Counted from the stretch's first letter, positions 56,164-57,017 are shown. The stretch is DNA of 64,000 bases from a virus (IMGVR_UViG_2681813455_000010:1928-65927), one strand, 5' to 3'. Made by a program: numbers and translations. The notes: a model not told the origin generated them from the letters alone.

Positions 56164-56634
56164 ATGGCTTACTCAGCTGCAGCGGTTGCTAATGCCTTCA
56201 TTGAAAAGGCTTTAAAGGGTGAGTTAAAGAATCTGACTCCAATGAAGCTCCAGAAGCTTCTTTTTTATACTCAATCATGGCATTTAAAGTTACGCGACAA
56301 CACACCGCTTTTTGATGATCTTTTCGCCAGATGGAAATTCGGGCCTGTTATTCCACCGCTTTATCATATGTTGAAGAAGTATGGCGCAAACGAAATCACT
56401 GAAAAGATTAGCGTCATCTTAGAGTGTGATGGCGAATTAAAAAGAATCACCCCTACAATTCAAAAAGATGATGAAGAAGCTCAAGCTCTTATCAATAAAA
56501 TCATCGAAGTATATGGGAAATTTTCAGGTACTGAACTGTCTAACTTAACACATGCGCCTGGTACAGCATGGAGCAAGGGAAGTGCAGATGGTGGCCCCAT
56601 TTCTCATGAGGATATGGCGAAGCATATTCACTAA
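56164..56634 (+). CDS. Panacea-domain (DUF4065-like) protein, candidate antitoxin/sensor
   Basis: ATG 56164 after AAGGGGG RBS; ...VANAFIEKALKGELKNLTPMKLQKLLFYTQSWHLKL...FARWKFGPVIPPLY matches the DUF4065 signature as recalled. Confidence 0.55.
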   Translation: MAYSAAAVANAFIEKALKGELKNLTPMKLQKLLFYTQSWHLKLRDNTPLFDDLFARWKFGPVIPPLYHMLKKYGANEITEKISVILECDGELKRITPTIQKDDEEAQALINKIIEVYGKFSGTELSNLTHAPGTAWSKGSADGGPISHEDMAKHIH

Positions 56635-57017
56635 TGAAGTCGTTTGATAGCATATCTATACCCAGTGGCACAAATGTAGGCTCATCGAAAGTATCAAGTG
56701 CCGAAGATGAGCCGCCAATTACAGAAAGAATATCCAGAGGTGACGACCTCAATGCTCAAAAAGCGGCAGATGCCAAGTCAAACAGGCAACTTCGTGAGAT
56801 CTTGGCAGAAAAAGCGTACCGTGTCGTAAAAAAATCACTTTACGGATGGGCTTTGTTTCTTTTCTTTCAAGGCTGGTTTTCTATCATTGGGATAAAGGTT
56901 TTTTCCGATAAGGTAGTTTTGGCTGTAACAACAGCTGTTACTCTTAATGTATTCGCTGCTTTTCTTGGTGTTATCAGGGGATTATTCCCAGCTGCCAGTA
57001 GAAAAGATAAAAGTTAA
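56634..57017 (+). CDS. Small membrane protein with two C-terminal TM helices, candidate toxin/effector
   Basis: 127 aa; start overlaps upstream stop (TAATG); C-terminal LYGWALFLFFQGWFSIIGIKVF and VVLAVTTAVTLNVFAAFLGVI. Confidence 0.5.
   Translation: MKSFDSISIPSGTNVGSSKVSSAEDEPPITERISRGDDLNAQKAADAKSNRQLREILAEKAYRVVKKSLYGWALFLFFQGWFSIIGIKVFSDKVVLAVTTAVTLNVFAAFLGVIRGLFPAASRKDKS

Follow-up and report, generated by a model that had tools for sequence, protein, structure and literature searches.

A Panacea toxin–antitoxin cassette, probably of the T3 type, in the cI-to-PL slot of an Escherichia coli lambdoid prophage

The Panacea domain was named by Kurata et al. (2022, PMC8832971), who validated nine PanAT toxin–antitoxin pairs, three of them with membrane toxins. 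The PanT of E. coli STEC O31, which belongs to toxin cluster T3, was toxic and was neutralised by its cognate PanA; this toxin and the PanT of Bartonella apis (cluster T12) caused membrane depolarisation and entry of SYTOX Green, and PanAs were found in complex with their toxins. The NetFlax study (PMC10440598) reported that a stand-alone Panacea protein directly neutralises a membrane PanT, and its authors propose that Panacea senses cues as yet unknown. The cI-N region, a recognised hotspot, harbours the abortive-infection systems rexAB and bstA (PMC8585504). Here we describe a two-gene cassette, panA-panT, at positions 56164-57017 of a 64,000-nt stretch of viral DNA (IMGVR_UViG_2681813455_000010:1928-65927; the whole stretch is called the window below). 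The window represents an E. coli lambdoid prophage with 100% identity, over the queried stretch, to strain SF-468, in which the prophage insertion site adjoins tRNA-Thr and proA. We conclude that the cassette is probably a T3-type PanAT toxin–antitoxin module, carried as exchangeable cargo of the lambdoid cI-to-PL slot. A cassette of this kind is already known, and RefSeq already names its first gene. A sequence-only reading of the window had called the module uncharacterised; as a kind it is not, the PanAT family being published and partly validated.

The first gene encodes PanA, a protein of 156 residues. A Panacea (DUF4065) signature had been seen in it, with a hidden Markov model search of Pfam proposed as the check, and this search gave a match well above the cut-off: PF13274 (SocA_Panacea), E=5.1e-21, 76.1 bits against a gathering cut-off of 25.7, covering residues 29-136. 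The motifs quoted from the sequence are present, and the Panacea domain stands alone, with no additional domain found by Pfam. RefSeq names the protein 'Panacea domain-containing protein' (WP_060710353.1), and it shares 40% identity with the PanA protein of Aggregatibacter phage S1249. The AlphaFold2 model has a mean predicted local distance difference test score (pLDDT) of 95.7; comparison of the model with PDB structures gave nothing significant (the best was DarTG chain B, E=0.054, TM-score 0.42), and sequence searches of the PDB found nothing. A longer start at 56068, which yields the longest open reading frame (ORF; 188 residues), was considered and rejected, the ATG of the 156-residue form being the RefSeq start. 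The start at 56164 is preferred because the family alignment opens at an invariant MAY (mostly MAYSA) and because a strong Shine-Dalgarno sequence, AAGGGGG (56151-56157), precedes it.

The best NCBIfam match of PanA is the SocA antitoxin model NF047745 (E=1.9e-26), and RefSeq sometimes uses the name 'antitoxin SocA domain-containing'. Such matches would suit a SocAB-like type VI system, in which PanA is a proteolytic adaptor that hands the toxin to ClpXP, not a stoichiometric binder. The score of 92.8 bits, however, lies far under the 190 bits set as cut-off for the equivalog, its partner, a membrane hairpin, does not resemble SocB, and the PanA–toxin complexes (PMC8832971) indicate direct neutralisation. 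We consider an adaptor mechanism extremely improbable.

The second gene encodes PanT (WP_060710354.1), which had been described as a protein of 127 residues with two C-terminal transmembrane (TM) helices, and both the hydropathy profile and the structural model bear this out. Kyte-Doolittle peaks lie at about residues 69-91 and 93-122, and the AlphaFold2 model has helices at 37-84 and 92-117 and a disordered N-terminus. In order, the protein consists of a variable disordered N-terminus (residues 1-31), a helix that is first charged and then hydrophobic, an FSD loop and a second hydrophobic helix. The first half of the helix 37-84 is charged and conserved, and the helix is hydrophobic from about residue 69. 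The second TM helix, T-AVTLN-FAAFLGVIRGLFP, is invariant in 41 relatives, in which the N-terminus is not alignable. PanT matches phrog_33656 (E=3e-42), a family to which no function is assigned there, and has no Pfam, NCBIfam or PADLOC family. Among the PanT relatives, none of the 143 members is covered by Pfam, holin families included, and comparison of the PanT model with viral structures gave nothing significant.

The cluster to which PanT belongs was identified through three loci that correspond to entries of Dataset S1 of Kurata et al., with the distance between the two genes taken from our ORF maps:

Phaseolibacter flectens ATCC 12775 (L027): T3 in Dataset S1, gene distance -4; ORF-map distance -4
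Tatumella morbirosei LMG 23360 (L025): T3 in Dataset S1, gene distance 8; ORF-map distance 8
Tatumella saanichensis NML 06-3099 (L028): T3 in Dataset S1, gene distance 15; ORF-map distance 15

The window PanT is 45-47% identical to the downstream proteins of these loci (E about 1e-30). Since the strains are the same and the spacing is identical, the three loci are the T3 entries, and homology to their toxins places the window PanT in cluster T3. T6, which has Enterobacterales members, was rejected as the home cluster, being a cluster of MazF-like RNases. Homology of the T12 toxin to PanT was rejected as well, on the results of blastp, hmmsearch (E=0.076 in a 7-sequence set) and hhalign (probability 9%). 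The placement in T3 strengthens the earlier guess of a membrane-depolarising partner, the E. coli representative of this cluster being a validated pore-forming PanT. By homology, PanT is predicted to be toxic and to form pores, and PanA is predicted to neutralise it.

The pairing of the two proteins is strict. A word-indexed search with PanT returned 65 clusters, all from Enterobacterales, and a profile search of 1.84 billion representatives returned 310 clusters at E<=1e-3 (125 at E<=1e-10), with the same architecture throughout. Little was gained from a further profile search, in which the wide alignment was run through the word-indexed database and 8000 candidates were scored, and look-ups of the clusters of remote members gave no names. 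At 34/34 loci, PanA lies directly upstream of the intact PanT homologue on the same strand (29/29 in one batch, 3/3 remote members, a Lysobacter prophage among them, and the loci of E. coli M8 and C5). The small membrane protein thus appears to be a dedicated partner of PanA. Two alleles of the cassette differ by 4 synonymous and 1 non-synonymous substitutions in panA and by 5 and 1 in panT, with a ratio of non-synonymous to synonymous rates (dN/dS) of about 0.06; for distant alleles dN is about 0.17-0.20 and dS is saturated. Both genes have numerous homologues, and both are genuine coding genes under purifying selection.

A two-helix membrane hairpin encoded by a prophage might also be something other than a toxin. 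PanT could block injection and thereby exclude superinfecting phages, or it could be a holin/antiholin-like factor of lysis timing, with PanA as an accessory regulator. UniRef gives one remote homologue the name 'phage holin family protein', and PanT itself has a weak match to the holin family phrog_881. This match, however, is not significant (E=0.039 over 17 residues), and the gene lies in the immunity region, outside the lysis cassette. The coupling to Panacea in all 34 loci, many of them non-phage, also speaks against a lysis factor, as do the tested members of the PanT cluster, which are toxic. A non-toxic PanT is in our view very improbable.

The cassette and its surroundings in the window are arranged as follows:

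54845-55078, minus strand: cro (ORF map)
55079-55182, unstranded: OR-like divergent promoter/operator region in the cro-cI interval, which holds the operator-bearing repeat 55106-55154
55183-55875, plus strand: gene of a cI-type repressor with helix-turn-helix and S24 peptidase domains, first gene of the unit (PF00717 E=1.3e-18, PF01381 E=1.8e-6; RefSeq annotation in SF-468)
55876-56163, plus strand: AT-rich spacer of 288 nt with 34-37% GC, assigned to the cargo on composition and the break in homology
56057-56117, plus strand: conserved element 5' of panA, kept across four cassette contexts
56164-56634, plus strand: panA, 156 aa, predicted antitoxin (ORF, PF13274, AlphaFold2, RefSeq)
56634-57017, plus strand: panT, 127 aa, predicted membrane-depolarising toxin (ORF, architecture, T3 link, phrog_33656)
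57016-57045, plus strand: intrinsic terminator with an 8-bp GC-rich stem followed by a T tract, end of the cI-panA-panT unit
57150-57220, plus strand: OL/PL-like region (operator repeats and promoter)
57185-57213, plus strand: PL-like promoter TTGATA-17-TATTAT with 10/12 consensus matches, driving kil, gam, bet and exo
downstream of the PL-like promoter, plus strand: kil, gam, bet and exo (ORF map, SF-468 annotation)

A 49-nt operator-bearing direct repeat (55106-55154 and 57171-57219, 73% identity) indicates that the cI unit lies, like that of lambda, between OR- and OL-like regions. The motif AGCAATAGCAA is found in the OR-like region, and three more copies lie at 57168-57209. In this frame panA and panT fill the place of rexA and rexB: they lie between cI and OL/PL on the cI strand and are closed by a terminator. 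The gene map, the 49-nt repeat and the PL-like promoter all agree with the rexAB position that the sequence-only reading had given to the cassette, and its description matches to the base. That reading had also proposed translational coupling and a toxin–antitoxin-like organisation, and both hold. At the junction, ATTCACTAATGAAG, the TAA stop of panA and the ATG start of panT have one base in common (TAATG), and no Shine-Dalgarno sequence was found ahead of panT.

On the other side of cro, the gene in the cII position (54275-54820) carries the RefSeq name 'toxin YdaT domain-containing protein'. No N-like ORF was found in 57214-57490, between the PL-like promoter and kil (57491-57697), and RefSeq likewise annotates none. 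The PL leader of ~277 nt has no Rfam match, and its folding energy is no better than that of shuffled sequence (z=-1.1); the same holds for the folding energy of the panA leader, and an Rfam scan of 54500-58200 found no family.

The element at 56057-56117, ~60 nt long, is conserved in the window and in the comparison loci L004, L022 and L047, where identity between the encoded proteins is no more than 43-77%. The cassette versions of Shiga toxin 2a (Stx2a) phages, of an integrative and conjugative element (ICE), of Proteus and of Serratia lack this element. The element contains a candidate promoter (-35 GTGACG at 56061-56066, a 17-nt spacer and -10 TAATAT at 56084-56089) that has 8/12 consensus matches, below the threshold of the promoter scan, and, 3' of it, a palindrome TTACC-N5-GGTAA (56100-56114). 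We infer that the element may be a modest sigma-70 promoter with an adjoining palindrome, which travels with the cassette. As the terminator scan predicted no plus-strand terminator in the cI-panA spacer (55876-56163), transcripts from the maintenance promoter probably run on into the pair, as they do into rexAB. The spacer also contains a hydrophobic ORF of 57 aa (55904-56077). It is probably non-coding, because between cassette alleles the spacer diverges more than the genes (94.8% identity against about 97-98%) and has one indel.

The other contents of the same slot in phages that share the backbone were compared with the cassette:

Lambda_4C10 and IdasGreatGrand, same slot: PDC-M11 A and B, of which B has an ASCH domain
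PhiR5_1, same slot: HipA-like kinase and DUF3037 protein, PDC-M66
PhiR68_2, same slot: two unannotated genes, for proteins of 341 and 149 aa, unmatched in PADLOC and Pfam

These slots correspond to L003:2580-3996, L057:2068-3496, L056:1895-3468 and L055:2048-3503, and both PDC-M11 and PDC-M66 are PADLOC candidates. Homology to Lambda_4C10 ends at the cI stop codon and restarts at 57015-57018, just past the panT stop. Because sibling-phage homology restarts there, the terminator at 57016-57045 is assigned to the phage backbone and lies outside the cargo. The GC content of the cargo is 34-43% as against 51-53% in the flanking phage genes, and the allele was found in only 11/5426 complete E. coli genomes, the right-hand backbone segment in 1233. 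Taken together, these comparisons indicate that the cassette is exchangeable cargo and that the slot swaps two-gene modules at base-precise borders.

The cassette also occurs with other partners and in other places. A 97%-identical copy follows a cI that has another DNA-binding domain (L002, NZ_CP172337.1). The record NZ_CP172337.1, a 44.8-kb circular 'plasmid', is a lambdoid phage genome, with Avs2 beside the integrase and emrE and ybcK near ren. In Stx2a phages, where cI is unrelated, the cI-N slot contains a copy of the cassette whose PanT is 57% identical to that of the window. In Escherichia phage Lys12581Vzw (L010:1931-5381) a DNA methyltransferase and a BsuBI-type restriction enzyme are followed by PanA-PanT, and 22 further records of Stx2/Stx2a-converting phages contain a slot of this type. 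In Lys12581Vzw, a terminator-like hairpin that resembles 57016-57045 separates panA from the restriction-modification genes. Other alleles were found between dinI and tail-fibre genes of a dusA prophage, adjoining ssrA in E. coli M8, in an ICE, in Pseudomonas chromosomes and in a Proteus phage. In Aggregatibacter phage S1249 (L021:31908-37036) a T12 PanAT pair shares the strand of the repressor and follows it downstream, after an 'Abi alpha-like' gene; a PanAT pair beside the repressor is therefore not restricted to coliphages.

Decayed copies of the cassette were found as well. The ICE of strain C5 (L048:2501-3438) has an intact PanA-PanT pair, whereas at the same position in RM11911 (L046:2294-3067) only PanA is left, to which the annotation gives a long N-terminal extension, and most of panT is deleted. 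In a Stx-type prophage of E. coli 2015C-3121 (L058:3501-3566) the last 21 codons of panT (LFAAFLGVIRGLFPHAKSHIE, then the stop) remain together with the terminator. They form the right edge of a cI-N slot that contains a Clp-fold serine protease, a small transmembrane protein and HicAB, and the remnant is a scar left when the cassette was replaced. Retention of the antitoxin with loss or truncation of the toxin is a decay typical of toxin–antitoxin pairs.

Turnover scars of these two types, antitoxin-only and toxin-remnant, would also be expected of a purely selfish addiction or stabilisation module, one that has no anti-phage role and acts on cells from which the prophage or the cassette has been lost, killing or arresting them. 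We regard this as a serious rival. The layout is that of a classic type II toxin–antitoxin pair, the family is found on ICEs and at chromosomal non-phage sites, and the literature that we searched contains no published defence phenotype. Nevertheless, the cassette recurs in prophage slots that otherwise carry restriction-modification, candidate defence and abortive-infection (Abi) genes, and in the window it is part of a lysogenically expressed immunity operon, in the place of rexAB and bstA. Moreover, post-segregational killing is of doubtful use to an integrated prophage, and addiction and defence can coexist. A purely selfish role is rather unlikely in our estimate, though by no means negligible.

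For the T3-type PanAT module that we favour, the following mechanism can be proposed. PanT would be a small hairpin in the inner membrane, with N- and C-termini that are probably cytoplasmic because the flanks are rich in K and R, and free PanT would oligomerise and depolarise or permeabilise the membrane. PanA would be soluble and made in excess, and it would bind PanT directly and hold it inactive; the position of panA as the first gene, its strong ribosome-binding site, which panT lacks, and the overlap of the two genes by one base point to such an excess of antitoxin. In the lysogen, transcription of the pair would start at the maintenance promoter, as part of the cI transcript, at the candidate promoter ahead of panA, or at both sites. 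Upon infection PanA would be inactivated, titrated or depleted, so that PanT would be released and the membrane potential would collapse. Exclusion of this type would make PanAT a functional analogue of RexA/RexB in which the control logic is reversed.

The location in a hotspot, the proposal that Panacea is a sensor and the company in which the cassette is found put abortive infection or exclusion ahead of the other functional hypotheses. We consider this the likeliest biological role of the cassette, directed against superinfecting phages, and put its chance at just about even or slightly lower. A more specific version is more tentative and falls somewhat short of even chances: T3 PanAT may be a true abortive-infection system in which Panacea senses a component of the incoming phage and frees a holin-like pore former. 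Expression of such a RexAB-like device with inverted logic would come from the repressor operon, and the resident prophage would itself have to silence PanAT upon induction.

Several points weigh against the interpretation of the cassette as a T3-type module with an anti-phage role. The link to T3 runs via cluster membership and not via an alignment to the validated toxin WP_000019185.1, and the cluster itself, built with jackhmmer, is large and heterogeneous; accessions other than WP_000019185.1 were found at all five E. coli PanAT loci examined and on one small plasmid. The T3 pair of Vibrio cholerae is atypical in that both proteins are toxic when overexpressed. Members of the family are also found off phages, on Pseudomonas chromosomes amid housekeeping genes and on ICEs, so that a generic selfish toxin–antitoxin module fits this distribution equally well. 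The literature searched contains no paper that shows phage defence by any pair of Panacea and membrane toxin. PADLOC-DB v2 does not list the panA-panT pair as a system and has no match for PanT, and its only match for PanA, to NsnC, is marginal (E=0.014) and was taken as noise. Finally, the promoter upstream of panA and the co-transcription with cI are both deduced from the nucleotide sequence.

If PanAT were a true abortive-infection system, an anti-phage role and its trigger would for the first time be established for a pair of Panacea and membrane toxin, and a family that has no Pfam or NCBIfam model and comprises at least 310 protein clusters (50% identity) would gain a function. The locus offers a testable case for the purpose of PanAT, since it lies in an exclusion slot expressed in the lysogen, in a coliphage for which E. 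coli genetics and phage panels are at hand. Protection against phages would tie the PanAT family to abortive infection and would provide a handle on the sensor role of Panacea. Otherwise the cassette is an ordinary accessory toxin–antitoxin module, half-annotated by RefSeq. Its value is that of a convenient test case and not of a new system.

Compared with the described systems, the cassette shares its slot with lambda RexA/RexB, and both are pairs of genes that encode one cytoplasmic and one membrane protein. The expected output, loss of membrane potential, is the same. RexB has four transmembrane segments and is activated by RexA. The two systems have no sequence or family similarity, and whereas RexA activates its partner, PanA is expected to inhibit PanT. 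RexA and RexB families were absent from the Pfam matches, and PADLOC, for which the presence of Rex models is unconfirmed, gave no match either. BstA and the other cargo of the cI-N region (PDC-M11, PDC-M66, restriction-modification and HicAB) occupy the same exchangeable slot and are presumably also expressed in the lysogen, but their proteins and mechanisms are unrelated to PanAT. Caulobacter SocA has the same Panacea/DUF4065 domain as PanA; the score of PanA is sub-equivalog, the toxin is unrelated, and the ClpXP-adaptor mechanism of SocA/SocB is probably different from that of the cassette.

The published PanAT pairs are closer. In the T12 system (Bartonella choladocola PanT D11; Aggregatibacter phage S1249 YP_003344834/5) the PanAs are 40% identical to each other and the toxin is likewise a small membrane protein, although the toxins are not detectably homologous. 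The T3 pair of E. coli STEC O31 (PanA WP_000287252.1, PanT WP_000019185.1) is another allele at another locus, with a gap of 22 nt between the genes and the score 'NotPhage', whereas the genes of the window cassette overlap by 1 nt and lie in a prophage immunity region. Compared through cluster membership, the two pairs have in common a stand-alone Panacea antitoxin encoded 5' of a small toxin, and a toxin that combines a charged N-terminal part with C-terminal TM helices and falls into the same homologous cluster.
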